DNA of 35,590 nt from a virus: IMG/VR virus record IMGVR_UViG_3300045988_094110. One strand, 5' to 3'. The notes under the pieces were generated by a model, which had not been told where the DNA came from, did not search any database, and saw nothing but the letters and a program-made list of their open reading frames with translations. A program made the translations under genes and the position numbers. Within the stretch, counting starts at the first letter, position 1. Every line of letters begins with the position of its first letter. Of this stretch, positions 951 through 28,407 are shown in pieces.

Positions 951-1313
951 ATGGCCGCGCGGTTCCCGGATGAGCTGACCTGCGACATGGCCGAGACCTA
1001 CCATGTACTGGACTGGCGGGCGCTGGGTCTGCCGTTGGCGGCCACGCTGGCCGCAGGCTTGCGGGAAAACAGCCGCACCCGGATGGCGCTTGCCGGGAGC
1101 GTGTCCACAGTGGACACGCTGCTGCTGGGCGCTGCGGTGGATGCGCTGCACCTGCTGGTCTGGGCCAAGACGAAGGATGGACAGAAGGGCCGCAGCCGCC
1201 CGGAGCCGGTGGTGAACCGTTTGCTGGGCGTGCCCAGCCAGCGGCAGGCCACCGGCTTTTCCTGTGCGGCGGAGTTTGAGGCGGCGCGGGCGAGGATATT
1301 GGGAGAGGGGTGA
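951..1313 (+). CDS. Tail assembly chaperone extension (gpT-like / Gp15-like), probably made as the G-T fusion join(673..933,933..1313)
   Basis: The ORF is in the -1 frame relative to 673-939 and is open from the slippery site. This is the conserved position upstream of the tape measure. Confidence 0.7.
   Translation: MAARFPDELTCDMAETYHVLDWRALGLPLAATLAAGLRENSRTRMALAGSVSTVDTLLLGAAVDALHLLVWAKTKDGQKGRSRPEPVVNRLLGVPSQRQATGFSCAAEFEAARARILGEG
1101..1117. repeat. 17-bp palindrome family copy 1: GTGTCCA-cag-TGGACAC (perfect; extended to agcGTGTCCAcagTGGACACgct)
   Basis: Read directly from the sequence. It lies inside the gpT-like CDS in phase GTG TCC ACA GTG GAC ACG (V-S-T-V-D-T). Confidence 0.9.
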
Positions 1314-3502
1314 ATGAAATGGCGAAGCAATCGCTGGCGAGTGCTTATGTGCAGATCATACCGTCGGCGGACGGCATCAGCGGCAAGCTGGCCGAGGTCA
1401 TGGGCGGCGAGGCGGCGTCTGCCGGTAAGATCAGCGGCAAGAGCCTGGGCTCGGCGCTGGTGGGCAACCTGACAAAGGTCGTGGTGGCGGCGGGCATCGG
1501 CAAGATGCTGCAGAGCGCCTTTACCGGCGGCACTGCGTTTGAGAGTGCCATGGCTAAGGTCGGCACGATTGCCGACACGGCCAAGGTGCCGCTGGAGAGC
1601 CTGAGCAGTCAGGTGTTGCAGGTGTCCGGTGACATGCACATCGGCGCGAATGAGATCGCCGAGGCGGCCTATCAGACCATCAGCGCCGGACAGGACACCG
1701 GCAACGCCGTGGCCTTTGCCGGGCAGGCGTCCATGCTGGCAACGGCAGGCTTTACGTCCAGCGCCTCGGCGGTGGACATCCTGACGACGGCACTGAATGC
1801 TTACGGCAAGGGCGCGGACGAGGCGGGGCACGTTTCGGACGTGCTGCTGACGACGCAGAACCTGGGCAAAACCAGCGTTGACGAGCTGGCGGGCAGCATG
1901 GGCCGGGTCATACCGCTGGCAGCTGCTTACAACGTGAGTCTGGAGAACCTGTCCAGCGGGTTGGCCATCATGACGGCAAACGGTATTGCCACGGCGGAGG
2001 CATCGACCTATACAAAGTCGATGCTGAACGAGCTGGGCGACACCGGCTCGACGGTGGGCAAAATCTTGAAGCAGCAGACCGGCAAGAGCTTTGCCGAGCT
2101 GAACGCCGACGGTAAGAGCCTGGGCGATGTGCTGCAGGTGCTGTACGACAGCGTGGGCGGCAACGCCACGAAGTTTGCGGGACTGTGGAGCAGCGTAGAG
2201 GCCGGTACGGGCGCATTGTCGCTGGCAAGTTCCGGCGCGGACAAGTTCAACGGTGTGCTGCAGCAGATGCAGGCCGACAGCGGCGCGACACAGACGGCCT
2301 ATGACACGATGACCGACACGATGGCCTACAAGCTGGACGGCGTGAAGACCAACGCCCAGAACCTGGGCACGGCGCTGTTTGATGCCGTGAGCGGGCGGCT
2401 GGGCGAGGGCGTGGCGCTGGCGGGCGGCTATCTGCAGACACTGTCCGAGAGCGTGCAGCAGAACGGCATTGCGGGGCTGGCGCAGGGTCTGGCGGCGGTA
2501 TTTACCGACCTGACAACCAACATCGGGCCGCAGCTTTTGCAGACCGGCACGGCCCTGCTGGGCAAGCTGGGGGACGGCCTTGTGACCGGCATCCCCCAGC
2601 TTTTGGCGCAGGCCCTGCCGGTTGTGGCGAACCTTGCCAGCGGCTTGCGCGAGAATGCCGGGCAGCTGGTGGATGCGGGCATCCAGTTCATTTTGAATCT
2701 GGCAACCGGGCTGATGAACGGACTGCCGACGATGATCACGTATCTGCCGGGCATTGTGTCGGACATTGCGGGCATCATCAACGACAACGCACCGAAGCTG
2801 CTGGTGGCGGGCGTGCAGCTGATCGTTACGCTGGGGCAGGGGCTTATCCAAGCGATACCGGCATTGGTGGCGAATCTGCCGCAGATCATACAGGCGGTTG
2901 TGGATGTGTGGACTGCCTTCAACTGGCTGGATCTGGGCGGCAAGGTCATTAAGCTGATGGGCAGCGGCATCAAGAATATGGCAGGCTTTGTCAGCAGCAG
3001 CGTGAAGGGAATGATGGAGCAGCCCATCGCCTATCTGAAGAGCCTGCCGGAAAAGTTCTGCCAATGGGGCAAGGATATGATCCAGGGCATGATCCGCGGC
3101 ATCACGAGCATGATCGACGGTGTTGTTGGCTCTGTAAAGAATGTGGCGTCTGCGATTGCTTCGGTCATCCACTTCTCCCGCCCGGACATCGGGCCGCTGC
3201 GCAGCTATGAGCAGTGGATGCCCGATTTTATGAGCGGGCTGGCAAAGGGCATCCGGGACAACCTGTGGATGGTCGAGGATGCCGCCGATGCGCTGGCGCT
3301 GACAACGGCCCAGCCCATGCAGCTGCAGGTGGCGGGCGTGCTGCGCGGCAACCAGCAGACGGTGGCAGCCAGCTGGCAGCCGCAGCCCGGCGTTGCCTAC
3401 CAGCAGACGAATAATTTCTACACCCACGACAGCCTGTCGGAATCCGAGCTCACCCGCGAGGCGGAGGACATGATGAACCGGCTGCGGTGGGGAATCCCAT
3501 AA
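1310..3502 (+). CDS. Tail tape measure protein
   Basis: 730-aa Gly/Ala/Leu-rich ORF after the chaperones, resembling a TP901-type tape-measure core. GTG 1310 overlaps the upstream stop. In-frame ATG 1319 with RBS GGGAGAGGGG is the more likely start. Confidence 0.85.
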   Translation: MNEMAKQSLASAYVQIIPSADGISGKLAEVMGGEAASAGKISGKSLGSALVGNLTKVVVAAGIGKMLQSAFTGGTAFESAMAKVGTIADTAKVPLESLSSQVLQVSGDMHIGANEIAEAAYQTISAGQDTGNAVAFAGQASMLATAGFTSSASAVDILTTALNAYGKGADEAGHVSDVLLTTQNLGKTSVDELAGSMGRVIPLAAAYNVSLENLSSGLAIMTANGIATAEASTYTKSMLNELGDTGSTVGKILKQQTGKSFAELNADGKSLGDVLQVLYDSVGGNATKFAGLWSSVEAGTGALSLASSGADKFNGVLQQMQADSGATQTAYDTMTDTMAYKLDGVKTNAQNLGTALFDAVSGRLGEGVALAGGYLQTLSESVQQNGIAGLAQGLAAVFTDLTTNIGPQLLQTGTALLGKLGDGLVTGIPQLLAQALPVVANLASGLRENAGQLVDAGIQFILNLATGLMNGLPTMITYLPGIVSDIAGIINDNAPKLLVAGVQLIVTLGQGLIQAIPALVANLPQIIQAVVDVWTAFNWLDLGGKVIKLMGSGIKNMAGFVSSSVKGMMEQPIAYLKSLPEKFCQWGKDMIQGMIRGITSMIDGVVGSVKNVASAIASVIHFSRPDIGPLRSYEQWMPDFMSGLAKGIRDNLWMVEDAADALALTTAQPMQLQVAGVLRGNQQTVAASWQPQPGVAYQQTNNFYTHDSLSESELTREAEDMMNRLRWGIP

Positions 3503-3517
3503 AGGAGGCGGTGCAGC

Positions 3518-4390
3518 ATGGCGCGGACCGTGCCGGTATATACCTATCAGGCCGCGGATGGCCGAAGCCTGCGGTTTGCCGCGGACAGCGATTTCTGGAT
3601 CACCGATATGAGCGGCGACGACGGGCTGGACATCGAGACAAAAACGAGCCAGTCCTACGGGCAGACCGGCAAGACGATCACAAATCAGTCCGTCGGTGAG
3701 CGCAGCGTGACCGTGACGGGGGCTATCCTGCGGGACCTGGACGCCAACGAGGCGCTGCTGAAAAAGCTGGTGCGGCCCCTGACGGCGGGACGCTGGTGCA
3801 AGACGGTGGGAAGCACGGTTTGGTACCTGGACGTTGTGCCCGCGCAGACGCCTGTTGTGAGCGGCGGGGCCAACCTGCTGAACTTTCAGTTCAAATTGAA
3901 AGCGGCATTCCCCTACTGGCGCACCGAGGATACGGCCCGGATGCTGCTGGGCGGCATGGAGCCTACCTGGTTCCCGACGCCTGTCTCGACAGCGGGGAAC
4001 TTCGCGATCAGCCGGTACAAGCACAATATGTACACGAATTTTGTCAACGACGGCAACGCCGAGACGGCCTTTACGCTGTATTTGCAGGCGGCGGCCAAGG
4101 TGAAGAACCCGATGCTGTGGAATAACGGCACGCGGACCTTCATCCGGCTGAATACCACGATGCAGGCGCATGAGCGCGCGGTCATCTGCACAGCGGACGG
4201 AAACCGCGGCTGCCGGTACTACACGGCAGACGGCGCGGAGGACAACGGATTCCGGCTGCTGGACATTGACAGCGATCTGTGGATGATGCTGACACCCGGT
4301 GACAATGTGCTGCGGATGACGGCGGACGAGGGTAACGAGAACCTGACGGCCATCGTCACGGCCCCGAAGGGGGTGGCGAGCGGTGTATGA
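3518..4390 (+). CDS. Distal tail protein (Dit / siphovirus tail family)
   Basis: 290-aa ORF directly after the tape measure, with RBS AAGGAGG upstream. Confidence 0.65.
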   Translation: MARTVPVYTYQAADGRSLRFAADSDFWITDMSGDDGLDIETKTSQSYGQTGKTITNQSVGERSVTVTGAILRDLDANEALLKKLVRPLTAGRWCKTVGSTVWYLDVVPAQTPVVSGGANLLNFQFKLKAAFPYWRTEDTARMLLGGMEPTWFPTPVSTAGNFAISRYKHNMYTNFVNDGNAETAFTLYLQAAAKVKNPMLWNNGTRTFIRLNTTMQAHERAVICTADGNRGCRYYTADGAEDNGFRLLDIDSDLWMMLTPGDNVLRMTADEGNENLTAIVTAPKGVASGV

Positions 4391-5465: not shown

Positions 5466-5470
5466 GCCAA

Positions 5471-6745: not shown

Positions 6746-6755
6746 GGGGGCAGAC

Positions 6756-7994: not shown

Positions 7995-8346
7995 TAGTTC
8001 TGTTTTTACCACCGATCTGGGCGCTGTGACCGCCTACGCCGATGCCAAGGCGCACGGCTACACCGGCACGCGTGAGGAGTTCGCCACGCTGCTGGCGAAC
8101 GCGGGCAACAACCTGGCCGAGGCGAACGCGGCCAAGGCTGCCGCGCAGGCCAGCGCTACGCAGGCAGGCCAGAGTGCGAATGCTGCTGCGGCATCTGCTA
8201 AGGCTGCCGCGTCTGCCGTGGGTGCAACGTTCTACGGCGTGGAGTTCACCGGCAGCACGTCGGCGGGGACGCGGACGGGGGCGGGCAAAACGATTTTGAC
8301 GGCGTCTATCCTTGGGCGGGTATGCGGCGCTGCTGCTGCACGCTGA
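7987..8346 (+). CDS. Tail fibre / receptor-binding protein, N-terminal part (frame broken at 8287-8290; continues in the 8322-9518 frame)
   Basis: ATG 7987 overlaps the upstream stop. There is an Ala-rich stretch, then ...GATFYGVEFTGSTSAGTRTGAGK. After the A4 run this frame gives nonsense residues and a stop. Confidence 0.6.
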   Translation: MADSSVFTTDLGAVTAYADAKAHGYTGTREEFATLLANAGNNLAEANAAKAAAQASATQAGQSANAAAASAKAAASAVGATFYGVEFTGSTSAGTRTGAGKTILTASILGRVCGAAAAR

Positions 8347-9518
8347 ACGCGGACGGCACGGTCACGGTCAACGCCTACAAGGGCCAGCCCGGCTACATTG
8401 AGGATGGCACGAACGGCGAGGTGCTGGTTGAGGTGCCGCTCTTCTATGTCTCCGGCATGTTGGATGTCAATCCGCGCGTGTCGGCTGTGCCGATGCCGGG
8501 ATTCCGCGCACCGCGGAAGTTCCAGAACGCGGACGGCTCCCTCAAGCAGAAGTGCTACCTGCCCGCGTTCCCCGGCAGCATCGGTGCGGACGGCAAGCTG
8601 CACAGCATTGCGGGCGTTGTCTCCACCGGCAACAAGACGATCTCGCAGTTCTTGGCTGCGGCCCGACTGTGGGGCGAAACCTACTGCATCAACACGAGCG
8701 CTGACTTTGAGGTGCTGGCCTACTTGATGATCGTGGTCTATGGCACCCGCAACGTCCAGGCTAAGATGCGCGGCGTCTCCAACCTGTACGCCACCGGCAT
8801 CGCCGTGACCGGCGCGCTGACCTCAGAGGCCGCCGTTATCGTTGCCAAGGGTGCGCTGGAGGTCGGCAATGTCATCTCCATCGGCACCGGCGGCGAGGGC
8901 GAGACCGTCGCCAGTCGGCGCATCGTCACCGCCATCGAGGCCATTGAGGGCGATACTGCCAATGTGAAGGCCGTGTTTACCGGCGACGCTGTGGCGACCA
9001 CCACCGATCACAAGGTCTGGCGCATCATGGAGGCAACCGGCACGGCTAACAGCGTCATCTCCACCTGTGGCAGTCCCGTCAGCAACACCGACGGCAAACA
9101 CAGCTTTGTGTTTTATGGCGTGGAAAATCCGCTGTACGGCAATCAGTGGCGCATGGAGTGCGACTGGAAACTGATTGACGGAGTCCCCTACTACTGCGAC
9201 GATCCGACTAAGTATCAGTGGAGCAGCGCCAACGACTACATCAAGCTGGATACGCTGACCCTGCCCGGTGAGGGCTGGGCAAAGAACCTCCAAGCGGATG
9301 AGCGCGTTCCCCAGTTGCAAATCACCAAAGAGGTCGGCGGCAGTTCGTCCACCTATCTGGCCGACTATTTCTACATCAACAAGAGCGGCACCCGCATCGT
9401 GCGGCGCGGCTGCTACTCCAGCAACGGGGATCCGGTCGGCGCATTCTACGTCGACCTCAGCAGCGATGCCTCGTGGTCCTGGTGGACCAGTTCGGCGGAC
9501 CTTTCTATTCCCGGTTAA
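8322..9518 (+). CDS. Tail fibre / receptor-binding protein, C-terminal part; DGR target carrying the VR at its C-terminus
   Basis: This frame is open upstream of ATG 8322, at least back to 8220. It reads ...QNDFDGVYPWAGMRRCC..., which joins naturally onto the upstream ORF. The last ~38 codons are the VR. Confidence 0.75.
   Translation: MRRCCCTLNADGTVTVNAYKGQPGYIEDGTNGEVLVEVPLFYVSGMLDVNPRVSAVPMPGFRAPRKFQNADGSLKQKCYLPAFPGSIGADGKLHSIAGVVSTGNKTISQFLAAARLWGETYCINTSADFEVLAYLMIVVYGTRNVQAKMRGVSNLYATGIAVTGALTSEAAVIVAKGALEVGNVISIGTGGEGETVASRRIVTAIEAIEGDTANVKAVFTGDAVATTTDHKVWRIMEATGTANSVISTCGSPVSNTDGKHSFVFYGVENPLYGNQWRMECDWKLIDGVPYYCDDPTKYQWSSANDYIKLDTLTLPGEGWAKNLQADERVPQLQITKEVGGSSSTYLADYFYINKSGTRIVRRGCYSSNGDPVGAFYVDLSSDASWSWWTSSADLSIPG
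9392..9506 (+). repeat. DGR variable region (VR)
   Basis: 115 nt align without gaps to 9602-9716 (offset 210) with 10 mismatches. 8 of the 10 are at TR adenines. Confidence 0.9.
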
Positions 9519-9527
9519 GCGGGGGAT

Positions 9528-9551
9528 CGCGGGGGCAGCAAAGCCCCCGCG
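9528..9551 (+). other. GC-rich hairpin just 3' of the VR (cGCGGGGGC-agcaaa-GCCCCCGCg), a DGR target-recognition-type hairpin
   Basis: 9-bp perfect stem, 6-nt loop, no following T-run, 22 nt after the VR end. Confidence 0.6.
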
Positions 9552-9601
9552 CACTATGTAAGTTTGACATCATCCGGGACAGGCTAACGGTCTCATCATC
9601 G

Positions 9602-9716
9602 CCGCATCGTGCTGCGCGGCAGCAACTCCAACAACGGGGATCAAGTCGGCGCATTCTACGTCAACCTCAACAGCGATGCCTCGTTGTCCTGGTGGAACAG
9701 TTCGGCGGACCTTTCT
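9602..9716 (+). repeat. DGR template repeat (TR)
   Basis: This is a non-coding copy of the VR. In VR phase it contains six AAC codons plus CAA. I count about 23 adenines in it. Confidence 0.9.
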
Positions 9717-9858
9717 TTGGCTGCAATCCTTGCGGATTGTAGGCGACCTTTACAGCGAGACCGGGATGCCTTAGCCCTAGCTAAAAATTGGCCCATCCGG
9801 CAGCCCTAGTAGACGCGCCAGCGGACGAACCGGCTGGAGGCCAAAGAAAGACTATAAA
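9717..9858 (+). ncRNA. DGR spacer (Sp) RNA region between TR and RT
   Basis: Non-coding. It has local hairpins CAATCC-ttgc-GGATTG (9724-9739) and CCAGC-N10-GCTGG (9819-9838). There is also an 11-nt perfect complementarity between 9711-9721 and 9840-9850. Confidence 0.5.
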
Positions 9859-10926
9859 ATGCCTAAGCGCATCGGAAATTTAAAGCCGGTCATGGTTGAC
9901 CGGGAATTTATACGGAGGTGTATGGTAGATCATGCGAAAAAGAGGATGCACGACCCGACCACGCTGCCCGCCTTGACGCACATTGAGACGTGCATCGACC
10001 AGGTGCAGCACTGGATCATCTACGGCGGCTGGACGCCCAGCGAACCGATACACACCCAGCACTATGAGCCGAGTAACGGCAAGCTGCGGGACATTGACTA
10101 TGTGCCGTACTGGCCGGACGGGGTCATGCACTGGGTACTGATTGAGGCGATCTATGACGTGGTCGTGCCTAAGATGGGCCCCTACTGCATAGCGGGCATC
10201 AAGGGCCGAGGGCCGCACAGCGCCGCCAAACAAGTGGCGCGGTGGATGAAAACGGACCGCGCTGGGATGAAGTACGGCGCAGAGTTGGACATACACCATT
10301 GCTTCCCCGAAAGCGACCACGATTTTATAGAGTACGGCTATAGGCAGCTGATAAAAGATAAATACTGGCTGCGTATGGCTGACGCCGTCGTGGACAGTTT
10401 TCCCAACGGCTTGCCGATTGGATATGTGACGTCGCACTGGTTCCAAAATCTTGCCATGACGGCGTTTGACCGCTATGTGCGGGGTCTGGACGGCGTGGAG
10501 CATTATTATCGCTATGTTGACAACGTTCATCTGTACGGCCCAAACAAGCGAAAGCTGCACCGCGCCCTGGAGGCTGCAATGGAGTGGTTGGCGGCGGCTG
10601 ACTACGCTTGCAATACCTGCTGGCAGGTCTACCGCACCGACTACATAGACGCCGACGGCAAGCACCGAGGCCGCGCCCTAGATGGGCTGGGTTTTGTGAT
10701 TTACTGCGACCACACGATCTACCGCAAGCGCACCACGCGGCGGCTGATCCGGCTGTGTCTCAACATCAAGGCCCGCCCGCATGGTGTGCCGACGCCGCAT
10801 CAAGCCAGGCAGGCCGCGTGTCGCATCGGCCAGCTGAAACACGCTAATATGCACCGATTCCGCGTGAAATACGTTGACGGTGTTGTGAGTTATCGCAAAA
10901 TTAGAAAGGTGGTACAAAATGCTTAA
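9859..10926 (+). CDS. DGR-type reverse transcriptase
   Basis: 355 aa. RT motifs read as LDIHHCF (A), GLPIGYVTSHWFQNL (DGR-like motif 4) and YRYVDNVHLYG (motif C, non-canonical YVDN). It sits directly after the TR. Confidence 0.85.
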   Translation: MPKRIGNLKPVMVDREFIRRCMVDHAKKRMHDPTTLPALTHIETCIDQVQHWIIYGGWTPSEPIHTQHYEPSNGKLRDIDYVPYWPDGVMHWVLIEAIYDVVVPKMGPYCIAGIKGRGPHSAAKQVARWMKTDRAGMKYGAELDIHHCFPESDHDFIEYGYRQLIKDKYWLRMADAVVDSFPNGLPIGYVTSHWFQNLAMTAFDRYVRGLDGVEHYYRYVDNVHLYGPNKRKLHRALEAAMEWLAAADYACNTCWQVYRTDYIDADGKHRGRALDGLGFVIYCDHTIYRKRTTRRLIRLCLNIKARPHGVPTPHQARQAACRIGQLKHANMHRFRVKYVDGVVSYRKIRKVVQNA

Positions 10927-11344
10927 ATGTGAGTGCAACGAAAAACACGCCCGCCTTGAGTGCGAGCCGCTGCCCAACGGTCTGACGTTGGTGCGCGTCT
11001 ACGAGGATGAGCAGGAGGTCACCCGCGAGGCTGTGTCCAACATGGACACGCCCTGGCACGGGTACAGCTACACGACATACGAGACGGTCACGCAGGTGCC
11101 CGATGGGCGGGTTGACGTTGACGCCTGGGCCGCGCTGGTCAAGCAGGCCGACCATGACGCTGCTGCCGCTGCCGTGCGCGCTGAGCGGGACAAGCTGATT
11201 GCCGCGACCGACTGGACAGTGCTGGGCGATGCCAAGACGGTGAAGGCCGACTGGAAGGCCTACCGGCAGGCCCTGCGGGATGTGCCCGAGCAGGCCAGCT
11301 TCCCCTACGCGGTGGAATGGCCCACGCCGCCGGTGGAAGAATGA
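10919..11344 (+). CDS. Tail fibre assembly / chaperone-like protein
   Basis: 141 aa. The C-terminal motif RAERDKLIAATDW...WKAYRQALRDVPEQASFPYAVEWPTPP is typical of phage tail-fibre assembly chaperone domains. Confidence 0.55.
   Translation: MLKCECNEKHARLECEPLPNGLTLVRVYEDEQEVTREAVSNMDTPWHGYSYTTYETVTQVPDGRVDVDAWAALVKQADHDAAAAAVRAERDKLIAATDWTVLGDAKTVKADWKAYRQALRDVPEQASFPYAVEWPTPPVEE
11033..11049. repeat. 17-bp palindrome family copy 2: GTGTCCA-aca-TGGACAC (perfect)
   Basis: Read directly. It is in a CDS in the same codon phase as copy 1 (V-S-N-M-D-T). Confidence 0.9.
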
Positions 11345-13142: not shown

Positions 13143-13170
13143 TGGCGGAGTAAGAGAGATTTGAACTCTT
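13143..13170 (-). other. tRNA 3'-end-like segment, candidate attP core
   Basis: The minus strand reads aagag-TTCAAAT-ctctc-ttactcc-g-CCA. That is a T-stem/loop, a 7-nt acceptor strand, a discriminator and CCA. No 5' half is present. It is adjacent to int. Confidence 0.4.
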
Positions 13171-13247
13171 AAAAAACTACGCCAGAGCGACAAACAATAC
13201 AATACTGCGAACAATTTACGATGCCTATTTGATTTCTCTTTTCCACG

Positions 13248-14360
13248 TTATTGATTTGTAAAATAACTGTTTAAAATGTCTGCGGCTTCATCGACGGCGC
13301 GGGCCTTGGCCTCGGCGTACCAGCGCTGGGTTGTCAGGATGTCGGCGTGGCCCATCAGCTCCTTGATGACCACAGGGCTGATGCCGCACTCCACCAGCAC
13401 GCCCGCAAACTCGTGCCGGAGCTGGTGGGCGGTGAAGTCGGCCTCCAGCACGGCCTTGTAGAGTGCCTCGCCGGTGACGCTGGTCTTGCCGGTTTTATAG
13501 CGCTTGCCGCTGTCGTGGGCGCGCCCAATGCTGATGCAGTATTGCCGCCATGCGTTTTCGTACCGGCTTTTGGTGTAGGGCCGCGCGCCGCCAAAAATAA
13601 AATCATCGTCCGCCAGATCGTCCAGCCGGCCGGCAAGCACATCCGCCAGCGGCTGCAGGATCGGCACCGTGCGCAGGGCGCTGGCAGTCTTGGGTGGCTC
13701 CAACACCGGCGTGTTGGAGTGCCAGACTACCGCCTTTGTCACGCTGATTTTTCCCCCGGCTAAATCGCGCTTCTGCAGCGCCATCACCTCGCCCAGGCGC
13801 AGGCCGGCATACATCATCATGGCGGGGCATAGCCCAAAGCCCTCGGGGTGGGCTTTTACATCGGCAATTTCCTCCTCAGTGGGGGCGCGGCGCTTTTTCT
13901 GGGGCAGCCCTTGGGGGAGCTTGAGCAGTGTGCAGGGATTGGTGTCGCCGTTCATCTCGGCGCACCAATACTGCCAGATCAGGGAGAGCACCGACTTCTG
14001 CCCGGCAATGCTTTTATAGGCATAGCCCTGCGCGGCCATGTGCATCAGCTCGCGGTTGATGTCGGTGCTGGTGATCTCGCGCATGCCCTGCCCCTCAAAC
14101 CAGCCCTTGGCGAGCTCCACCTTATGGCGGTAGCCTCGGCGGGAGCCATACTTGATGCACGGCTCCTTGGCGCGCCAGAACGCCTCTGCGACCTCGCAGA
14201 AGGGGTCCCCCCTGTCCCGGCGGGTGCTGGCTTCTATGAGGGCCGCATCGATCTTGGCCTGCACCTCCTTTGCGGTGCGGCCGTAGAAGTGGCGGGTCTT
14301 GCCATCAATAACGCGGCAGCGCTCGATCAGGCCGTCCGCGCGTTTTTTCGTTTTTGCCAT
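13248..14360 (-). CDS. int: Tyrosine recombinase / phage integrase
   Basis: 370 aa. The C-terminus has AHQLRHEFAGVL...LMGHADILTTQRWY (the R..HxxR..Y catalytic pattern). RBS AAGGAGG is upstream. Confidence 0.9.
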   Translation of the reverse strand: MAKTKKRADGLIERCRVIDGKTRHFYGRTAKEVQAKIDAALIEASTRRDRGDPFCEVAEAFWRAKEPCIKYGSRRGYRHKVELAKGWFEGQGMREITSTDINRELMHMAAQGYAYKSIAGQKSVLSLIWQYWCAEMNGDTNPCTLLKLPQGLPQKKRRAPTEEEIADVKAHPEGFGLCPAMMMYAGLRLGEVMALQKRDLAGGKISVTKAVVWHSNTPVLEPPKTASALRTVPILQPLADVLAGRLDDLADDDFIFGGARPYTKSRYENAWRQYCISIGRAHDSGKRYKTGKTSVTGEALYKAVLEADFTAHQLRHEFAGVLVECGISPVVIKELMGHADILTTQRWYAEAKARAVDEAADILNSYFTNQ

Positions 14361-14385: not shown

Positions 14386-14414
14386 TTGACAAGCGTGTCC
14401 GGAGGTGATACAAT
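14386..14414 (+). promoter_or_regulatory. Strong sigma70-type promoter pointing away from int (TTGACA-17-TACAAT)
   Basis: TTGACA at 14386-14391, a 17-nt spacer, TACAAT at 14409-14414. Confidence 0.55.
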
Positions 14415-14420
14415 ACAGAT

Positions 14421-14502
14421 GCTGGTCGGTATTGTGTCCACTCCGGACACGCTGATCTTGAATGCCTGCGGTGTTGGTAGCGCCGCGGGCGTTTTTTATT
14501 TT
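14421..14502 (+). ncRNA. Candidate ~80-nt small RNA, antisense to the int leader
   Basis: It would start ~7 nt after the -10 box. It contains the GTGTCCActcCGGACAC hairpin. It ends at a short GC hairpin (14479-14493) followed by TTTTTTATTTT. Confidence 0.3.
14434..14450. repeat. 17-bp palindrome family copy 3: GTGTCCA-ctc-cGGACAC (1 mismatch)
   Basis: Read directly. Intergenic, upstream of int. It is also the inner part of a larger inverted repeat, agcgtgtccggag (14392-14404) / ctccggacacgct (14441-14453). Confidence 0.8.
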
Positions 14503-14630
14503 AAACTTTCGCCGTTTGCCCAGATGCGGAACTGCGTTGCCCGGCGGGTCGCGCTGTGCTTTTTTTAAACTACCGAGAAATCCTCGGCGGTGTTTAAATT
14601 GGAAATTCAAAGCTGTTGGGTTTGCAACTG

Positions 14631-16174: not shown

Positions 16175-16813
16175 TTACAGTTTCCTGCACAAGCCAACGG
16201 CCTTGCCTTCGATGGTGATGGTGTTCATATCTTCGCCGATGCGGATGATTGTGGGAAAGGCTGGGTTTTCGGCGCGGAGCTCGATGTGGTCGGTGAACAG
16301 AAACACGCGCTTAAGGGTGGCCTCGCCATCGATCAGGACGGCAGCGACCTCGCCGTTCTCGACCATCGGCTGGCTGTGGATGGCTACGACATCGCCGTCT
16401 TTGATTTTTGGCTCCATGCTGTCGCCCTGGCACAGCAGCGTGAAGTCGGCGTGCCAATCGCTGGGGACTTCATCGTAGGCCTCGACATTCTCCTCCGCGA
16501 GGATGGGTGTGCCGCAGGCGATTTGCCCCACACGCGGGATGCGGTCCCGCTTCGGCAGCGGCTGGAACCCGGCAGGGATGGGAGTAGCGGCAACAGGATT
16601 TTTCCGTTCGACGGTTGATCGCCCCATGAGATAATCCATGTCGACATTGAAAATGTCTGCGATAGCTTCAAGCGTTTCAAAATCTGGTTCGCGGCTGCCA
16701 GTTTCATACATGCCTATCGTACTGCGGGATACTTTTAGCAAGGCAGCGAGTTGCTCTTGCGTTATGCCTCTTTCGATGCGAAGGGATTTTATAATTGCCG
16801 AAAATTTAGCCAT
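16175..16813 (-). CDS. Phage repressor, XRE HTH + S24 (LexA/cI-type) autopeptidase
   Basis: 212 aa. N-terminal HTH (ITQEQLAALLKVSRSTIGMYETG). C-terminal GDSMEP...LKRV Ser/Lys dyad. Confidence 0.9.
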   Translation of the reverse strand: MAKFSAIIKSLRIERGITQEQLAALLKVSRSTIGMYETGSREPDFETLEAIADIFNVDMDYLMGRSTVERKNPVAATPIPAGFQPLPKRDRIPRVGQIACGTPILAEENVEAYDEVPSDWHADFTLLCQGDSMEPKIKDGDVVAIHSQPMVENGEVAAVLIDGEATLKRVFLFTDHIELRAENPAFPTIIRIGEDMNTITIEGKAVGLCRKL

Positions 16814-16844
16814 GCGAAGTCAATCCTCTCTGTGTACTAATCTT

Positions 16845-16872
16845 ATAATATCGCGAATCGTGAGAAAGTCAA
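16845..16872 (-). promoter_or_regulatory. Candidate repressor (PRM-like) promoter
   Basis: On the minus strand: TTGACT, a 16-nt spacer, TATTAT, then RBS GAGAGGA before ATG 16813. Confidence 0.45.
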
Positions 16873-16894
16873 CCGCAAAATGTCACGAAATGTG

Positions 16895-16922
16895 TTGACA
16901 AATACCAAGAGCGTGATATACT
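16895..16922 (+). promoter_or_regulatory. Candidate early lytic (PR-like) promoter
   Basis: TTGACA (16895-16900), a 16-nt spacer containing a TGn extended -10, then TATACT (16917-16922). Confidence 0.5.
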
Positions 16923-16931
16923 GTATATATA

Positions 16932-16946
16932 GTCACGGTTCGTGAC
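16932..16946. promoter_or_regulatory. Operator-like palindrome GTCACG-gtt-CGTGAC just after the PR -10 box
   Basis: Perfect 6-3-6 palindrome. Related half-sites (a)TGTCACGA occur at 16880-16888. Confidence 0.5.
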
Positions 16947-16968
16947 AAATGAAAGCGAGGTGATTCTG

Positions 16969-17166
16969 ATGGATTCGGAGAAGATTGCGCAAACATTGGT
17001 TGAACTGCGGGGCGCTCGACCGCGCGCCGAGGTTGCAACAGCGCTGGGTGTAAGCGTTTCTGCACTGGCGATGTACGAGACTGGCGCTAGAATCCCCCGC
17101 GATGAAACAAAGCGTAAAATCGCGCAGTATTACGAGAAAACCGTGGAGGAGATTTTTTACGCCTAA
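16969..17166 (+). CDS. Cro-like XRE-family HTH protein
   Basis: Divergent from the repressor gene. RBS GAGGTGA lies 5 nt before ATG 16969 (the ORF track starts at 16942). HTH read as RAEVATALGVSVSALAMYETG. Confidence 0.75.
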   Translation: MDSEKIAQTLVELRGARPRAEVATALGVSVSALAMYETGARIPRDETKRKIAQYYEKTVEEIFYA

Positions 17167-17168: not shown

Positions 17169-17187
17169 ATGTCACGATAAGTGACAT
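17169..17187. promoter_or_regulatory. Operator-like palindrome ATGTCAC-gataa-GTGACAT
   Basis: Perfect 7-5-7 palindrome sharing the aaaatgtcacga block with 16877-16888. Confidence 0.45.
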
Positions 17188-17191: not shown

Positions 17192-17208
17192 GTGTCCACC
17201 TTGGACAC
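17192..17208. repeat. 17-bp palindrome family copy 4: GTGTCCA-cct-TGGACAC (perfect)
   Basis: Read directly. Intergenic between the cro-like gene and the next HTH gene, directly 5' of RBS AAGGAG. Confidence 0.9.
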
Positions 17209-17226: not shown

Positions 17227-17580
17227 ATGAACGGAGTGTACGACAGGATCCGTCAGCTTCGCATTGCCAACGGGCTGACGCTGGAGGAGCTGGCCCGGGC
17301 CGTCGGCTACAAAGGCAGGTCGATGATGTCACAGGTCGAGCTGGGCAAGGTCGATCTGCCGCTGTCCAAGGTCGCCGCTATTGCGCAGGCCCTGCACACA
17401 ACCCCTCAGGAGCTGCTGTTCCCCGCCTCACCTCCCGAGAAGGTGGCTGCAGCTATAACCGTAGCCGTCAAGCTGGACGGCATGGATGAAGCCCTTGATA
17501 AAGCGCACGAACTGGTAAGGACAATCGAAAAGACCAAGTCGCTGGTGGGCGACCTGGCCGTGGACACACAAAGGAGGTAA
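17227..17580 (+). CDS. Second XRE-family HTH regulator
   Basis: ATG 17227 lies 9 nt after AAGGAG (the ORF track starts at TTG 17218). HTH read as LTLEELARAVGYKGRSMMSQVELG. Confidence 0.65.
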   Translation: MNGVYDRIRQLRIANGLTLEELARAVGYKGRSMMSQVELGKVDLPLSKVAAIAQALHTTPQELLFPASPPEKVAAAITVAVKLDGMDEALDKAHELVRTIEKTKSLVGDLAVDTQRR

Positions 17581-20497: not shown

Positions 20498-20510
20498 GAG
20501 GATGCAAACA

Positions 20511-20905: not shown

Positions 20906-21649
20906 ATGGAAAACAGCTTTTTGAAAGACGCTATTAACCGTATTGTGGAGCTGGCGACCCCCTTCACCCTGGAAACGCGCGACGGGCGTCAGTTCTGCTC
21001 CGCCAATCTGCGCGAGGTCAGGCCGGAGGTCCCGTCCCCGGTGCGGTACTCGGTGGACACGCTGGAGGCGCTGGTCAAGCTGATCCGCACCGAGGGTATC
21101 AACCACTCGCCCCTGCTGTATGTGCGTGTGGACAGCGCCCGGCGGGTCATGGTGGACACTACATACACGCATAAAGAATACGCAGAGTTCAGCCGCTTGC
21201 CGCTGTATGAGGCCGTGAGCGATGTGCCGAGCATTTCTGTCAACCAATACATGAGCCAGGAACACGCCGTTATCGAACTGCAGAGCCTGTACGCTGTCAC
21301 CGATGACCGTGACTACCTGCTGGCCCTGCTGAGCCGCATTGACGTCAATCAGGGCGTGTCCAGTGTGGACAACGGGATCAGCCAGGAGGTCAGTGTCCGC
21401 ACCGGCGCGGTGCTGAAGGAGCAGCAGACGGTGCAGCCCATCGTCCACCTGCAGCCCTACCGCACTTTCCTTGAGGTCGAGCAGCCCGCCAGCGACTTCT
21501 TGCTGCGCCTCGACAAAAATGGCCGCCCGGCACTGTACGAGGCTGACGGCGGTGCGTGGAAGCTGGAGGCCAAGCGCAACATCGCCGCCTATCTGGGCGA
21601 GCAGCTGGCCGATCTGGTGGAGCGCGGCAGTGTGGTGGTGATGATCTGA
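20906..21649 (+). CDS. Conserved hypothetical phage protein preceding ssb
   Basis: 247-aa ORF with an ATGA overlap onto ssb. Confidence 0.5.
   Translation: MENSFLKDAINRIVELATPFTLETRDGRQFCSANLREVRPEVPSPVRYSVDTLEALVKLIRTEGINHSPLLYVRVDSARRVMVDTTYTHKEYAEFSRLPLYEAVSDVPSISVNQYMSQEHAVIELQSLYAVTDDRDYLLALLSRIDVNQGVSSVDNGISQEVSVRTGAVLKEQQTVQPIVHLQPYRTFLEVEQPASDFLLRLDKNGRPALYEADGGAWKLEAKRNIAAYLGEQLADLVERGSVVVMI
21356..21372. repeat. 17-bp palindrome family copy 5: GTGTCCA-gtg-TGGACAa (1 mismatch)
   Basis: Read directly. It is in a CDS in the same phase as the other coding copies (V-S-S-V-D-N). Confidence 0.75.
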
Positions 21650-23011: not shown

Positions 23012-23019
23012 GGTTAGGC

Positions 23020-24342: not shown

Positions 24343-24375
24343 CACCCGCCGCCCCGGCGGGACAGGAGGATTACT

Positions 24376-25155
24376 ATGATCAGCATTGCAATTATCAACT
24401 TGAAGGGCGGCGTCGGAAAATCCGTCACCGCCTGCAACCTGGCCGCCGAGCTGGCCGCCAAGAGCAAGAGCGTTCTGGTGGTGGACCTCGACAAGCAGGG
24501 CAACACCAGCAAGTTCTTTGGCGTGTTGGACTACGACAGCCCCAGCGTGGCCGAGGTGATGCTGGGCGAGGACGACATCATGGCGGCCATTGTGAAGGGC
24601 GTCGATGTTTGGGGCGTACATCTGCTGCCCTGCGACATGCGAATGCTAAAGGCCAACCGCACGATACTGATGGACAACGGCCCGCGGCAGTTCCATCTGA
24701 GGGACGCGCTGAAATGTGTGGCCGGGGACTACGACTACTGCATCATGGACTGCCCGCCGGACTTGGACATGGGCAGTATCAACGCCCTGTGCGCGGCTGA
24801 CTGGGTCATCATCCCGGTGGACTGTGACAAGTGGGCCTGCGACGGGATGCAGGAGATAGTAGAGCAGATCGAGCAGGTGCAGGCCTACTACAACCCGCGC
24901 CTGAAGATCATGGGTGCGCTGATGACGAAGTACCGCCGCACCCGGTACGCGGAGGACATCATCGTTCAACTGTGCGCGTCGGGAATCAGCGTGCTGGAGA
25001 CTGTCATACGCTACACCGTCAAGGTCAGCGAGGCCGCGCATGCAGGCATGCCGCTGTTGGAATACTGCCCGGACTGCACGGCAGCGGTGGATTACAGGGA
25101 GCTGACGGAAGAAGTTGAGCGGATCGTGTCCAATGTGGACACAAAGGAGGGCTAA
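24376..25155 (+). CDS. parA: ParA/Soj-family partition ATPase
   Basis: Deviant Walker A NLKGGVGKSVTACNLA, with RBS AGGAGG upstream. Confidence 0.85.
   Translation: MISIAIINLKGGVGKSVTACNLAAELAAKSKSVLVVDLDKQGNTSKFFGVLDYDSPSVAEVMLGEDDIMAAIVKGVDVWGVHLLPCDMRMLKANRTILMDNGPRQFHLRDALKCVAGDYDYCIMDCPPDLDMGSINALCAADWVIIPVDCDKWACDGMQEIVEQIEQVQAYYNPRLKIMGALMTKYRRTRYAEDIIVQLCASGISVLETVIRYTVKVSEAAHAGMPLLEYCPDCTAAVDYRELTEEVERIVSNVDTKEG
25126..25142. repeat. 17-bp palindrome family copy 6: GTGTCCA-atg-TGGACAC (perfect)
   Basis: Read directly. It lies in the last codons of parA (V-S-N-V-D-T), directly 5' of the parB RBS AAGGAGG. Confidence 0.9.
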
Positions 25156-25158
25156 GCG

Positions 25159-26553
25159 ATGAGTAAGGGATTTTCTATCAACGACATTCTCGGCAGCACA
25201 AAAGCCAACGCCCCGGCGGGGCAGAAAATGCAGGTCGTCATGCTGCCGGCGGCAGACATCGAGCCGAACCCGGAAAATAGCATCTACGAGATCGGAGATG
25301 TATCGATGCTCAAAGCCGACATTGCCGAGCGCGGCCTGCGCAGCCCGCTGGAGGTTCTGCCCGCCCGGGCCGGGAAGTATATGCTGCTGGCCGGCCACCG
25401 GCGCTGGACAGCTTGCCGGGCCCTGACTGCCGAGGGCGTGGCCGGGTTTGAGGTCCTGCCCTGCGTTATCCGCCAGAGTCAGGGCGAGGATGACGACTTG
25501 ATCGCGCTGATCACCTCCAACGCCACAGCGCGCGAGCTGACGGACGGTGAGCGGCTGCGCCAGTACCGGGCACTCAAGCAGGCACTCGAACGCAAAAAGG
25601 CGGCGGGTGCGCTCGATGGCCGCATCCGTGATGAGATGAGCCGCATCACCGGCGATGGCACCGGCACACTGGGGAGGCTGAATGCCATCGCCAACAACTG
25701 CGTGCCGGAGGTTCTGGCGATGGTGGAGCGCGGCGAGATCACCATGACGCGGGCCTACGAGTGCAGCAAGCTTTACAAGGTGCAGCAGGCAGAATACGCC
25801 AAAAACAAGTACGCCACTATGCCGCCCATCACCGATATGGCCCGGCGGGCGGCCATCAAGTATCTGGTCGAGTGCGGCCTGGCCGGCCAGTTTAAGAAGC
25901 TCGACTACGTTCACAAGAGCGAATGGAACTACGCTGACAACAGGCTGGATGCCCGAAAGCTGGAGCCTGTGACGCTGGATCTGACTGAGGGCGAGACGGA
26001 TGCGCTGCTGCGCATTGAGCCTTCTGGTTGTTACAACTTTCGCGTCAGGATGCTGGACCCGGCGGATACAAACGAGGTTATTGCCGAAAGCTCACTCACT
26101 ACACGAGATTTGTTCGATGCCGCCAAGCGCCTGTACATCAACAAGGACGATCTGGCGGCGTACAAGGCCGAGGTGAAGGGCAAGCGTGATCAGGAGCGTG
26201 CCCGGCAGGAGGAGGCCGGAAAGTGGCAGGCGCTGGCCCGGCAGGAGCTGGAGGCGTTCGACAGCTGGCCGCTTGTGACGCGGCTGAAGGACCTGGGCCT
26301 GACGATCCGTGAGCGGAAGATGGCAGACGGCGGGCGGCTTATCATTGCCGTGGATGACCTGACGCGCTTTTCAGGCCATGTGGACGGCTTCCAATACCGC
26401 GAGTGCTTCGCAGTGCGCCTCGGGCCGAACGGCGAGCGCGCAGGCCGGGACGGAGACATCAATGCGCTGGAATGGTACAAGCGCTGGTACAGCACCGGCG
26501 CGGGCATTGAGAACTACATTGCCGAGGACATCGAGAGGAGCGAGAAGAAGTGA
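25159..26553 (+). CDS. parB: ParB-like protein (ParB/Srx N-terminal domain) with a long C-terminal extension
   Basis: NPENSIYEIGDVSMLKADIAERGLRSPLEV....LLAGHRRWTACRAL matches ParB box motifs. Confidence 0.75.
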   Translation: MSKGFSINDILGSTKANAPAGQKMQVVMLPAADIEPNPENSIYEIGDVSMLKADIAERGLRSPLEVLPARAGKYMLLAGHRRWTACRALTAEGVAGFEVLPCVIRQSQGEDDDLIALITSNATARELTDGERLRQYRALKQALERKKAAGALDGRIRDEMSRITGDGTGTLGRLNAIANNCVPEVLAMVERGEITMTRAYECSKLYKVQQAEYAKNKYATMPPITDMARRAAIKYLVECGLAGQFKKLDYVHKSEWNYADNRLDARKLEPVTLDLTEGETDALLRIEPSGCYNFRVRMLDPADTNEVIAESSLTTRDLFDAAKRLYINKDDLAAYKAEVKGKRDQERARQEEAGKWQALARQELEAFDSWPLVTRLKDLGLTIRERKMADGGRLIIAVDDLTRFSGHVDGFQYRECFAVRLGPNGERAGRDGDINALEWYKRWYSTGAGIENYIAEDIERSEKK

Positions 26554-26813
26554 AGTGCATGTACAACCAGAGCAAGCGCGGCTTGCCGTCCGATGTGCGG
26601 ACGATGGCGCTGAAGGTCGATGCGGTAGTCAGCCGCGCATGGAACGAGATGCTGGTGGCGATGGAGCAGTCCGGCCTCAGCGCAAAGACGATCAACAAGA
26701 CAAGAGAGAAGCTGACCGAGGTCGTGCTGCCCTATGTGGATGATTTACGCAACCCCAACGGTGGGCTGAAGAATGCCGGCAACCCGCAAAATGTGAGGGA
26801 TGGCGACATCTGA
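26550..26813 (+). CDS. Hypothetical protein
   Basis: 87-aa ORF. GTG 26550 overlaps the parB stop. An alternative start is ATG 26559. Confidence 0.4.
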   Translation: MKCMYNQSKRGLPSDVRTMALKVDAVVSRAWNEMLVAMEQSGLSAKTINKTREKLTEVVLPYVDDLRNPNGGLKNAGNPQNVRDGDI

Positions 26814-26915
26814 GTGCAGGCCTATCTCGTGGCGCGCGGCATCAAGGCGTTCGATGTCCCGGAGGTGGACTATGGAGAAGATCACGTTTGACGTAGATCA
26901 GTAAGGAGCGAGACT

Positions 26916-27284
26916 ATGGACGCAATACAATTCTTGAAAATTGTTGGACGGATTTGCAAGGCGAATGACGGAAAATGTGATGAGTGCCCATTAGATAAAT
27001 ACCCCTGCAGTGCATATATAAACCGCATAAGAGACGCTGAACCAGATAGTGGCATTGAAGAAATGGTAAACATTGCAGATAGGTGGGCAAAAGATCACCC
27101 CTTCAATACCCGCCAGAGCCAGTTATTGAAGATGTTTCCAGATGCGAGAACCGATGACGCCGGAATCCTTGTTTATTGTCCAGATGCTTTCATTGCAAAA
27201 GAAATAAGTGCCGAATATTGCAACAAATACAATAAATGCCAAGAGTGTCGCAAAGACTACTGGCTTGCGGAGGTGGACACATGA
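26916..27284 (+). CDS. Cys-rich hypothetical protein on a low-G+C insert (moron)
   Basis: 122 aa with RBS AAGGAG. Cys clusters: CKANDGKCDECP...C and C...CNKYNKCQEC. Sampled lines are ~33-42% G+C. Confidence 0.55.
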   Translation: MDAIQFLKIVGRICKANDGKCDECPLDKYPCSAYINRIRDAEPDSGIEEMVNIADRWAKDHPFNTRQSQLLKMFPDARTDDAGILVYCPDAFIAKEISAEYCNKYNKCQECRKDYWLAEVDT

Positions 27285-27709
27285 ACTACGATGAGTGCGT
27301 TGCGTGGATGGGCCGCTACTGCGCAGCCAAGCATGCGGCACCGCGCCTGCGGGAGAAACTTGCCGAGGAGACCCGGCGGGCCGAGTATGCAGAGGTCCTG
27401 CGAAAAGCCCCGGCGGGTACGGCAGAGACAAATCTTGAGAGTGCCATTGCCAGCATCAATGCCCGGCGGGAGAAGCTGGCCGCCCAGCTGACGGCCGGTG
27501 AGGCCGCGCAGGTGGAGATCGAGGAAGCCATTGGCAAGGTCCCGGACGCGCTGGAGCGCGAGGTCCTGCAGGCGCGGTACATCGATGGACGCACCAATCG
27601 TCAGATCGCGGCACGGATGAGAGTGAGCGAGCGCTATGTACGCAAGCTGCACCGGAGAGGAATTTTGCAAATTTTAAAATTAGTTCCGCTTAGTTCCGCC
27701 CAGGTGTGA
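27281..27709 (+). CDS. Late-gene transcriptional regulator (sigma region-4-like / DUF1492-like)
   Basis: The C-terminus LEREVLQARYIDGRTNRQIAARMRVSERYVRKLHRRGILQI is a sigma70 region-4-type HTH. It lies upstream of the packaging genes. ATG 27281 follows GGAGGTGG. Confidence 0.6.
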   Translation: MNYDECVAWMGRYCAAKHAAPRLREKLAEETRRAEYAEVLRKAPAGTAETNLESAIASINARREKLAAQLTAGEAAQVEIEEAIGKVPDALEREVLQARYIDGRTNRQIAARMRVSERYVRKLHRRGILQILKLVPLSSAQV

Positions 27710-27776
27710 TACACTCAGGTTGCCGGGTGATGGGGCTTGACACACGGCGCTGCAATGTTTGCGAAACCTCCTAGAG

Positions 27777-27810
27777 GGAAACAGTCGCCCCAGCTGGGAC
27801 GGCTGTTTTC
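27777..27810 (+). terminator. Rho-independent terminator after the late regulator
   Basis: 15-bp stem ggaaacagtcgcccc / gggacggctgttttc with loop agct. The 3' arm ends in TTTTCTT. Confidence 0.6.
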
Positions 27811-27854
27811 TTGGTATCCAGGCGCAGGGTATGCAGGGCGGGCGGGTACGCCTG

Positions 27855-27881
27855 GCCGGTTCGATTCCGGCAGCTTGGCCA
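27855..27881 (+). other. tRNA T-arm/acceptor-like fragment (GCCGG-TTCGATT-CCGGC-agcttgg-cca)
   Basis: Canonical 5-bp T-stem, 7-nt TTCGATT loop, then 7 nt and CCA. I could not build a matching 5' acceptor strand or cloverleaf. Confidence 0.3.
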
Positions 27882-28390
27882 TGTATTTTCTCCTTTCCCT
27901 TTCACAGCTGACAGCCGGGAAAGACCGGCACTATATGAGACGCACGAGTCCGTATGAGGTCTTGTGCGCGAATACTGGCGCAAGAGAGGCTACCGGCCTT
28001 TTCGCGCCCGCTTTATTCTTTTTCCGTGTCTGCTGGCGGGTAAGTTCAGCAGAACCGCCGCGGGTCAAGCGGATCGCGCCATATCATCCGAGGTGGCGCG
28101 GTTCCCGGCCTCAAGGTCGTTCTGGGCCGGGGTTGTATGCTGTATAGCCAACCGCTAGACTCCACACGGCGGGATGGGCGCTGTGCTCCGCAAGCAAGGC
28201 ACGGCGCAGGTGCAAGGCCTGCATGCAGTACCAGTACGCCGCTGTCGGCGTAGCAATAAATTGGCAGATGACGGGCGGAAATAGACCGCCATGCCCGGCG
28301 GGCGGGAGAGGCTCAACTACATCGAGACAAAGAAACTCCGTCTCGCGCCGCTGGGCAGCTATTGTATTCACTACGGCCCGGCGGGTCAGC

Positions 28391-28407
28391 GTGTCCACGT
28401 TGGACAC
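28391..28407. repeat. 17-bp palindrome family copy 7: GTGTCCA-cgt-TGGACAC (perfect)
   Basis: Read directly. It lies in the non-coding region, 40 nt upstream of the HNH start. Confidence 0.9.

Follow-up and report, generated by a model that had tools for sequence, protein, structure and literature searches.

A dispersed 17-bp palindrome as the predicted recognition site of a ParB family on Clostridia phages and plasmids

The plasmid-prophage N15 carries SopAB with four dispersed centromere sites, and in the SopABC system of the F plasmid the sopC repeats contain 7-bp inverted arms. On plasmid RK2, KorB and IncC are accompanied by 12 dispersed OB palindromes, and KorB forms a cytidine triphosphate (CTP)-dependent sliding clamp that is locked by KorA or TrbA (PMC11790492, PMC13584720). 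The integrative element ICEclc encodes BisD, a ParB-like CTP clamp that uses parS-like bisS sites on the integrated element and activates distant promoters (PMC12409273). A 2025 survey of ParB-CTPases identified prophage ParB-DUF3850 proteins as the only fusion class consistently located beside parA and left both their function and their DNA site open (PMC12704722). Here, we describe a palindrome, GTGTCCA-N3-TGGACAC, that is dispersed over a temperate siphophage genome of 61% G+C (IMG/VR record IMGVR_UViG_3300045988_094110; 35.6 kb, hereafter the window) encoding adjacent ParA and ParB proteins. Sequence comparisons indicated that the palindromes are probably parS-type recognition or loading sites for the phage ParB (25159-26553), and that this predicted site is most likely common to a large family of ParA/ParB systems found on phages and plasmids of gut Clostridia. 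A literature search found no published description of the palindrome.

The parAB locus in comparison with described systems

The protein encoded at 25159-26553 belongs to the ParB/Noc/KorB fold family. Its Pfam ParB_N domain scored above the cutoff, and a sequence search of the PDB returned ParB, Noc and KorB. A model of the protein was built with AlphaFold on 25 close relatives and had a mean predicted local distance difference test (pLDDT) score of 67; it was good for residues 110-350, and a fold search placed Spo0J first (1vz0; E = 6e-6, approximately 200 columns), followed by Noc, KorB and M. xanthus ParB. The GHRRW box (residues 79-82, encoded at 25393-25404) aligned with GERRW of C. crescentus ParB (6t1f). 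In an alignment of six family members, M1/K3/F5, G79/R81/R82 and N121/R125 were kept, and a conserved block at approximately residues 150-210 resembled the ParB helix-turn-helix (HTH) region plus the following helices. Six divergent ParBs shared no conserved stretch of 7-10 residues. In the Box III-like segment, Ser or Ala instead of Glu stands ahead of the conserved Asn.

The locus resembles type I ParABS in that a Walker ParA gene is followed by a gene for an HTH protein with the ParB-CTPase fold, with a short palindrome adjoining the operon. It differs in the N-terminal peptide and Box II of ParB (both weighed below), in the long distinct C-terminal half of this protein, and in having dispersed sites, partly inside open reading frames (ORFs), on an integrating phage. 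The ATPase domain of ParA begins at residue 3, and the N-terminal regulatory DNA-binding extension that defines type Ia ParA/SopA is lacking. The site is unlike that of Spo0J/ParB, since its core, GTGTCC-N5-GGACAC, has an odd spacer and is unrelated to TGTTNCACGTGAAACA.

The RK2 KorB-OB system is similar in combining a ParB-family protein and a ParA with many identical palindromes over a mobile element, many of them intergenic or at promoters, and KorB structures were among the fold matches of the window ParB. This likeness was clearest in a pCP13-like plasmid, described below, in which all six palindromes are intergenic. In the window, by contrast, only three of the seven sites are intergenic and the other four lie in coding DNA far from promoters; moreover, the sequence similarity of the window ParB to KorB was remote (PDB sequence E = 0.17). 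ICEclc BisD provides a second parallel, an integrative element using a ParB-like protein with its own loading sites and an extra domain absent from ParB, but it has two bisS sites and a partner, BisC, whereas the window system keeps an adjacent ParA. The first-pass annotation of this DNA, made from the sequence alone, had drawn a comparison with N15. N15 and P1 are likewise temperate phages encoding ParA and ParB, and the dispersed layout of the N15 centromere sites does match. Membership in that group could not be upheld: the window phage has a tyrosine integrase, integrates beside host genes and lacks a protelomerase, its ParA is short, without the N-terminal extension, and its parAB apparently lies inside the early lytic operon. 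A plasmid-prophage would be extrachromosomal and devoid of an integration module; here, int was present and integrated copies were found.

The ParA-ParB pairs (PCP01/PCP02) of the C. perfringens plasmids pCP13 and pBCNF5603 fall into the same ParB family by sequence, with 31-33% identity over residues 1-233, and the pCP13-like plasmid and the Enterocloster phage Saumur carry the same palindrome core at parAB. The C-terminal halves differ by clade, being coiled-coil-like in the plasmids and a DUF3850 domain in Saumur. In the window ParB, this half is different again and includes two beta-rich segments. Among 25 relatives, no Pfam match reached E <= 1; BLASTP showed no similarity to the DUF3850 region of Saumur, and fold matches stayed at chance level. 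The Saumur protein itself (L196, 13134-14549) is a fusion of ParB_N and DUF3850 (PUA-like), with parA adjacent. These alignments place the window system in a wider family that includes the prophage ParB-DUF3850 proteins, for which the palindrome supplies a candidate DNA site.

The palindrome set and its association with the ParB family

A pattern search recovered seven copies of GTGTCCA-N3-TGGACAC in the window, five perfect and two with one mismatch (Table 1), exactly where the first-pass annotation had placed them; raising the tolerance to two mismatches over the window yielded no further copy. The claim that the set could not have arisen by chance held, as 100 dinucleotide-preserving shuffles gave a mean of 0.10 matches (maximum 3) and none reached seven. 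All seven central triplets were distinct, as had been reported, and the likely HNH start at 28447 agreed with the reported position of one copy before the HNH/terminase operon. Because the copy at 14434 deviates at position 11, the partner of position 7, the core was taken as GTGTCC-N5-GGACAC, which is perfect in six of the seven copies and has one mismatch in the seventh. Two further claims stood only in part. The proposed extension of the symmetry into the flanks was seen across the family, with C before the site and G after it each in 53% of 147 distinct copies, but both bases were present in only two of the seven window copies. The four copies within ORFs are all in phase 0, as claimed, and encode V-S-x-x-D-T/N; however, the alternative frames would impose C-P-x-W-T or V-[HQ]-x-G-H, and the shared phase follows from amino-acid tolerance, the other two frames being harsher, so that no special explanation is needed. 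Three of the seven copies were intergenic, where non-coding DNA makes up 7.3% of the genome (P = 0.011). Neighbouring copies were 2.8-9.9 kb apart. Regularity of this spacing was considered and not used as evidence: the minimum gap gave P = 0.009, a post hoc measure, the maximum gap P = 0.18 and the coefficient of variation P = 0.07. An Rfam scan matched no family at any copy.

Table 1. Positions of the palindromes and genes in the window, and palindromes on distant replicons
Feature	Position	Strand	Description
Palindrome copy 1, perfect	1101..1117		In tail assembly chaperone-like gene 951-1313; phase 0, VSTVDT
Palindrome copy 2, perfect	11033..11049		In tail fibre assembly gene 10919-11344; phase 0, VSNMDT
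Palindrome copy 3, GTGTCCACTCCGGACAC, one mismatch, core perfect	14434..14450		Intergenic, upstream of int
Palindrome copy 4, perfect	17192..17208		Intergenic, between cro-like gene and second HTH gene
Palindrome copy 5, GTGTCCAGTGTGGACAA, one mismatch, last base A	21356..21372		In gene 20906-21649 (phrog_1029, unknown function); phase 0
Palindrome copy 6, perfect	25126..25142		In last codons of parA, directly upstream of parB Shine-Dalgarno sequence
Palindrome copy 7, perfect	28391..28407		40 nt upstream of HNH/terminase operon start
parA	24376..25155	+	259-aa Walker-type ParA ATPase; AAA_31 3.9e-47, CbiA 1.4e-26, phrog_164 ParA-like 5.7e-62
parB	25159..26553	+	464 aa; ParB-CTPase fold, HTH region at approximately 150-210; proposed palindrome binder
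Tail and head genes			Siphophage structural module
Diversity-generating retroelement, variable repeat (VR)	9392-9506		
Diversity-generating retroelement, template repeat (TR)	9602-9716		
Diversity-generating retroelement, RT-18 RNA	9772-9850		
Diversity-generating retroelement, reverse transcriptase (RT)	9859-10926		
int	13248-14360	-	Tyrosine integrase
CI-like repressor	16175-16813	-	HTH+S24
cro-like gene	16969-17166		
Second HTH gene	17227-17580		
Replication genes			HTH_36 initiator, DnaB
Sigma-region-4-like regulator	27236-27709		
HNH/terminase late operon	Start 28447		
Flavonifractor phage Cormatin			61% G+C; three GTGTCCAAGTTGGACAC (perfect) and GTGTCCGATTCGGACAC 48 nt into parB
Enterocloster phage Saumur			48% G+C; GTGACCGAATCGGACAC between parA stop and parB Shine-Dalgarno sequence
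pCP13-like C. perfringens conjugative plasmid (L193, NZ_CP148590)	21706, 29021, 29075, 33509, 39567, 41382		25% G+C; five perfect GTGTCCCC[CG]GGGGACAC and one variant
P. sordellii pCS1-5			24% G+C; copies just upstream of parA and downstream of parB
C. difficile pCd5_2			25% G+C; copies just upstream of parA and downstream of parB

The palindromes are under DNA-level selection and co-occur and co-vary with this ParB family. Selection was measured where distinct homologous segments were numerous enough, namely at two sites of the window. Not one of the 14 arm positions varied at 21356 (34 segments) or at 25126 (14 segments), whereas the mean minor-allele fraction was 0.054 in the flanks of the former; at the latter, flanking positions averaged 0.12 and spacer positions 0.26. 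The arms stayed invariant while neighbouring wobble positions varied. Among 147 distinct copies from the family, fixation was 89% at the outermost base pair and 99-100% over the rest of the arms, and the three central bases were nearly unconstrained.

The association with ParB was approached from both directions. In a protein-first set, collected blind to the motif, 62 IMG/VR loci and two contigs of metagenome-assembled genomes (MAGs) encoded ParB relatives with 50-99% identity; 63 of these 64 loci carried the palindrome (258 sites in 1.10 Mb), usually in 3-7 copies at syntenic positions. The first-pass annotation had suggested counting the motif in related phages, and this count agreed with its proposal. 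When the Cormatin or Saumur ParB served as the query, 38 of the 52 loci obtained carried the core with at most one mismatch. In the motif-first direction, IMG/VR was searched by the pattern alone, and all window proteins were compared by tblastn with the resulting loci (at least 119, some of which must be chance matches given the size of the collection). Among the matches listed, ParA (at least 25 loci) and ParB (at least 24 loci) were the commonest window proteins nearby, with identities down to 26-40%, and in many divergent loci the palindrome lay at the parA/parB junction. The end of parA and start of parB, occupied by copy 6 in the window, was the most conserved site position across the family.

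Annotated collections searched with the ParB protein alone yielded more distant replicons, with ParB identities of 27-33%, that also carried the site (Table 1). Their hosts span several Clostridia families. Cormatin is an induced prophage of F. plautii YL31 (PMC10197239), and one of its palindromes lies just before the small-terminase gene. Saumur is carried by E. clostridioformis YL32, and Hi-C maps exist for both strains (PMC10197239). On the pCP13-like plasmid, where the copies read GTGTCCCCSGGGGACAC, one is located between parA and parB. Two of its palindromes stand in tandem upstream of a pilin gene. Between clades, position 7 of the palindrome and its partner changed symmetrically (A/T, G/C or C/G). 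ParA and ParB were the only proteins common to all motif-bearing replicons examined, and the genes downstream of parB differed between replicons. In contrast, controls sharing only the N-terminal region of ParB, a Gordonia phage and an L. lactis plasmid, had no site. The ParB family is very abundant in human-gut metagenomes, with a single 90%-identity cluster of 4,362 members and 631 clusters matching at E <= 1e-5.

Twelve loci selected with the Cormatin or Saumur ParB that lacked the core, together with the single motif-less locus of the first set (L178), were inspected for variants. A symmetric variant, GTGCCC-N5-GGGCAC, was found in L237 (three copies, one at +21 of parB), L223 and L222; L220, L221 and L224 held only imperfect versions of it. 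In L239, L246 and L247, a drifted site occupied -33 to -36 of parB, and inspection revealed no clear site in L231, L250, L251 and L178. The GTGCCC sister clade (L237, L223, L222 and L226) comprises IMG/VR contigs encoding a Cormatin-like ParB with approximately 36-56% identity. The palindromes of L226 mix GTGCCC and GTGTCC half-sites, which, going by their sequences, looks like an intermediate in a specificity shift. Recognition-helix residues were also compared between the GTGTCC and GTGCCC clades, and the sequences were too few for any claim.

Proposed role of the sites and alternative explanations

Taken together, the motif followed ParB across phages and plasmids of differing hosts and G+C contents, its position at parA/parB was kept, and it changed symmetrically in sister ParB clades, all in favour of the idea preferred in the first-pass annotation that these are sites of the ParB-like protein. 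In such a system, a ParB dimer would read both GTGTCC arms via its HTH, leaving the central 3-5 bp unread. By analogy with other ParB-CTPases, it would then probably close into a nucleotide-dependent clamp and slide outward, and seven sites at the observed distances could load the whole 35.6-kb genome with ParB. Working on this complex, ParA might position free circles of phage DNA or segregate them; such circles exist following infection or excision, while replication proceeds, or in a carrier state. Clamps near promoters might also modulate transcription of the late operon, at the cro-HTH junction and in the int upstream region. Binding itself, clamp behaviour, coupling to ParA and biological role are inferred here.

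In characterised ParBs, the Glu of Box II has a part in CTP hydrolysis. The box reads GHRR in the window ParB and in those of Cormatin and Saumur, whereas it is GERR in the clostridial plasmids; nucleotide turnover may therefore differ in the window ParB, in which Glu is replaced by His. This substitution is one of several points that weigh against the ParB-site reading. The N-terminal peptide (MSKGFSI or MAKKFSI; MxKxF) differs from the canonical ParA-activating consensus LG[KR]GL as used in PMC12704722. The model was poor over the N-domain (pLDDT <50 for residues 1-110), and the nucleotide pocket was therefore assessed only through alignments. The phage integrates, and a partition role is thus not required for lysogen maintenance; parAB also has no predicted promoter of its own. 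The density of the palindrome in the host chromosome rests on approximately 10 kb. The palindromes of the AT-rich plasmids resemble bidirectional terminators and may double as such. Finally, for pBCNF5603 and pCP13 a putative parS was proposed elsewhere, in the 117-bp spacer between parB and PCP03 (PMC4459074). The published pBCNF5603 spacer looks like a terminator, and pKZ200, a mini-replicon with the pBCNF5603 rep-parAB and this spacer, was unstable (PMC4459074).

Three features are ill-suited to a plain plasmid centromere, namely integration, the position of parAB in the early operon and the presence of copies at control points. The last are located before the late operon, at the cro/HTH junction beside an immunity-type palindrome and in a promoter/hairpin/terminator unit upstream of int. 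It is conceivable, although we regard it as a tentative proposal based on analogy, that ParB-parS in integrating gut phages serves as a lytic- or establishment-phase genome organiser or regulator and not mainly as a plasmid-style centromere. ParB clamps produced from the early operon would load genome-wide and, with ParA, position replicating phage DNA and/or exert KorB- or BisD-like timing of late (HNH/terminase), int and early transcription. If so, the same palindrome regulon would exist on pCP13-family toxin plasmids.

The most durable alternative to recognition by ParB is that the palindrome acts in RNA as a 6-7-bp hairpin, terminating or attenuating transcription, guiding processing or, just before the Shine-Dalgarno sequence, influencing translation. 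The copies on the conjugative and toxin plasmids of 24-25% G+C (L193, L194 and L195) are all intergenic, and the A-runs and T-runs on either side of them recall bidirectional intrinsic terminators; copies also stand right before the Shine-Dalgarno sequence at 17192 and 25126 in the window, three times in Cormatin and once in Saumur; these gaps are, however, simply where a packed genome has non-coding space. Symmetric changes would preserve pairing, and PUA-like C-terminal domains such as DUF3850, present in the Saumur ParB and tied to possible RNA functions (PMC12704722), might read such a hairpin. Nevertheless, DUF3850 was undetected in the window ParB, Rfam was blank at every copy, and the window copies lack a T-run, were unreported by the terminator scan and include four inside ORFs. 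RNA hairpins generally keep pairing rather than sequence, and their loops usually matter. Here, the arm sequence itself, not just complementarity, is kept over hosts from 25 to 63% G+C, and the loop, at only 3-5 nt, is free to vary in sequence. Fixed arms, a free centre and symmetric drift together form the pattern expected of a dimeric DNA-binding protein and not of an RNA hairpin, which makes the RNA reading improbable.

The sites could instead be operators of a phage HTH regulator (the CI-like, cro-like, 17227-17580 HTH or sigma-region-4-like protein) coordinating int, early and late transcription, the alternative raised in the first-pass annotation. Dispersed repressor sites exist in other temperate phages, the phiC31 CIRs and the Cluster A stoperators being examples, the three intergenic copies stand at plausible control points, and, upstream of the late operon, the 28391 copy shares its right arm (TGGACA) with a weak -35-like hexamer (28401-28428). 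Unlike the phiC31 and Cluster A sites, the palindrome lies outside the repressor/cro control region and is not co-inherited with the repressor. The CI/cro divergent region (16814-16941) holds no copy and has its own GTCACG-type palindromes overlapping promoter-like sites. Among the listed matches at the motif-first loci, cro and second-HTH homologues occurred at none, the CI-like protein at 11 or more and the sigma-like protein at six or more, versus at least 24-25 for ParB and ParA, and the Clostridium conjugative plasmids carry the motif without these phage regulators. Because regulators are not common to motif-bearing replicons and the CI/Cro region uses different palindromes, we consider this explanation very unlikely and the earlier suggestion was set aside.

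An equally slim chance was given to another factor travelling with parAB, such as a host protein or small protein, that binds the sites, or to a nuclease or methylase target. The genes after parB, which are uncharacterised and differ between replicons, would leave room for such a factor, but only ParA and ParB are shared by all motif-bearing replicons examined, the hosts come from several families of Clostridia, changes in the site parallel the ParB clades, and the 259-aa ParA has no DNA-specificity domain. A chance or host-wide repeat without a phage-specific role is hardly credible given the shuffles (seven copies against 0.1 expected), the five perfect G+C-rich copies on a plasmid of 25% G+C, the motif-less control replicons and the lack of copies in the host flanks, the weak point here being that these cover approximately 10 kb.

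Recognition of the palindrome by ParB would have practical consequences. Members of the ParB family are also encoded by toxin plasmids, namely the pCP13 type of C. perfringens and pCS1 of P. sordellii. With a 17-bp site defined, ParB binding, the CTP clamp and the stability and incompatibility of toxin plasmids can be tested directly. As a new orthogonal ParB/parS pair, the protein and its site would also serve to label DNA loci in Clostridia. It further sharpens the question of why integrating phages retain a ParABS module with genome-wide sites.

Other features of the phage genome

The window ends in a 26-bp terminal direct repeat (1-26 and 35565-35590), indicating a complete circular or terminally redundant genome. 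An identical integrase occurs on a 35,589-bp scaffold matching the window, and on longer contigs (41-97 kb) it directly adjoins host genes, namely sdaAB, RNHCP, M20 peptidase and rnfCDGEAB; the phage therefore integrates, and attP is probably located just downstream of int, around 13154-13247. The approximately 10 kb of host DNA beside the prophage, available as four versions of one region (L188-L190 and L192), contained no palindrome. The host is a Clostridia-like bacterium of 62% G+C, an assignment that is loose: one relative lies on a contig of 128 kb from a MAG that bears the label Subdoligranulum variabile, and a second MAG locus with a ParB relative came from a Coriobacteriaceae MAG. Within the genome, the rightward early operon includes parAB, which follows cro and the replication genes; a promoter scan found no promoter-like site specific to parAB.

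A second palindrome family with GTCACG/CGTGAC arms was observed in the CI/cro divergent region (16850-16950 and 17169-17187), comprising GTCACGGTTCGTGAC at 16932-16946, ATGTCACGATAAGTGACAT at 17169-17187 and half-sites close to 16859 and 16881. Because the family overlaps the promoter-like sites of the divergent CI/cro pair, these palindromes are probably immunity operators. Palindrome copy 4 begins 5 nt past the member at 17169-17187 and stands 10 nt ahead of a Shine-Dalgarno sequence.

Upstream of int, palindrome copy 3 follows a strong promoter-like site (14386-14414, + strand) and precedes a terminator-like hairpin (14460-14494). The unit at 14386-14505 on the + strand starts with a near-consensus promoter (TTGACA-17-TACAAT with a TG extension), the spacer of which contains a GTGTCC half-site, and continues through the palindrome copy to a 16-bp terminator hairpin with a T-run. 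The predicted RNA of approximately 85 nt folds at -42 kcal/mol (z = -6.5) and, on this prediction, could be a small RNA adjoining or antisense to the int leader.

The window also contains a diversity-generating retroelement (8322-10926) aimed at the C-terminus of the tail protein encoded at 8322-9518. Its VR and TR are 115 nt long and 91% identical, and eight of the ten mismatches fall at template adenines. The RT-18 RNA scored above the Rfam gathering score, and the reverse transcriptase matched phrog_1423 at 1.3e-55.

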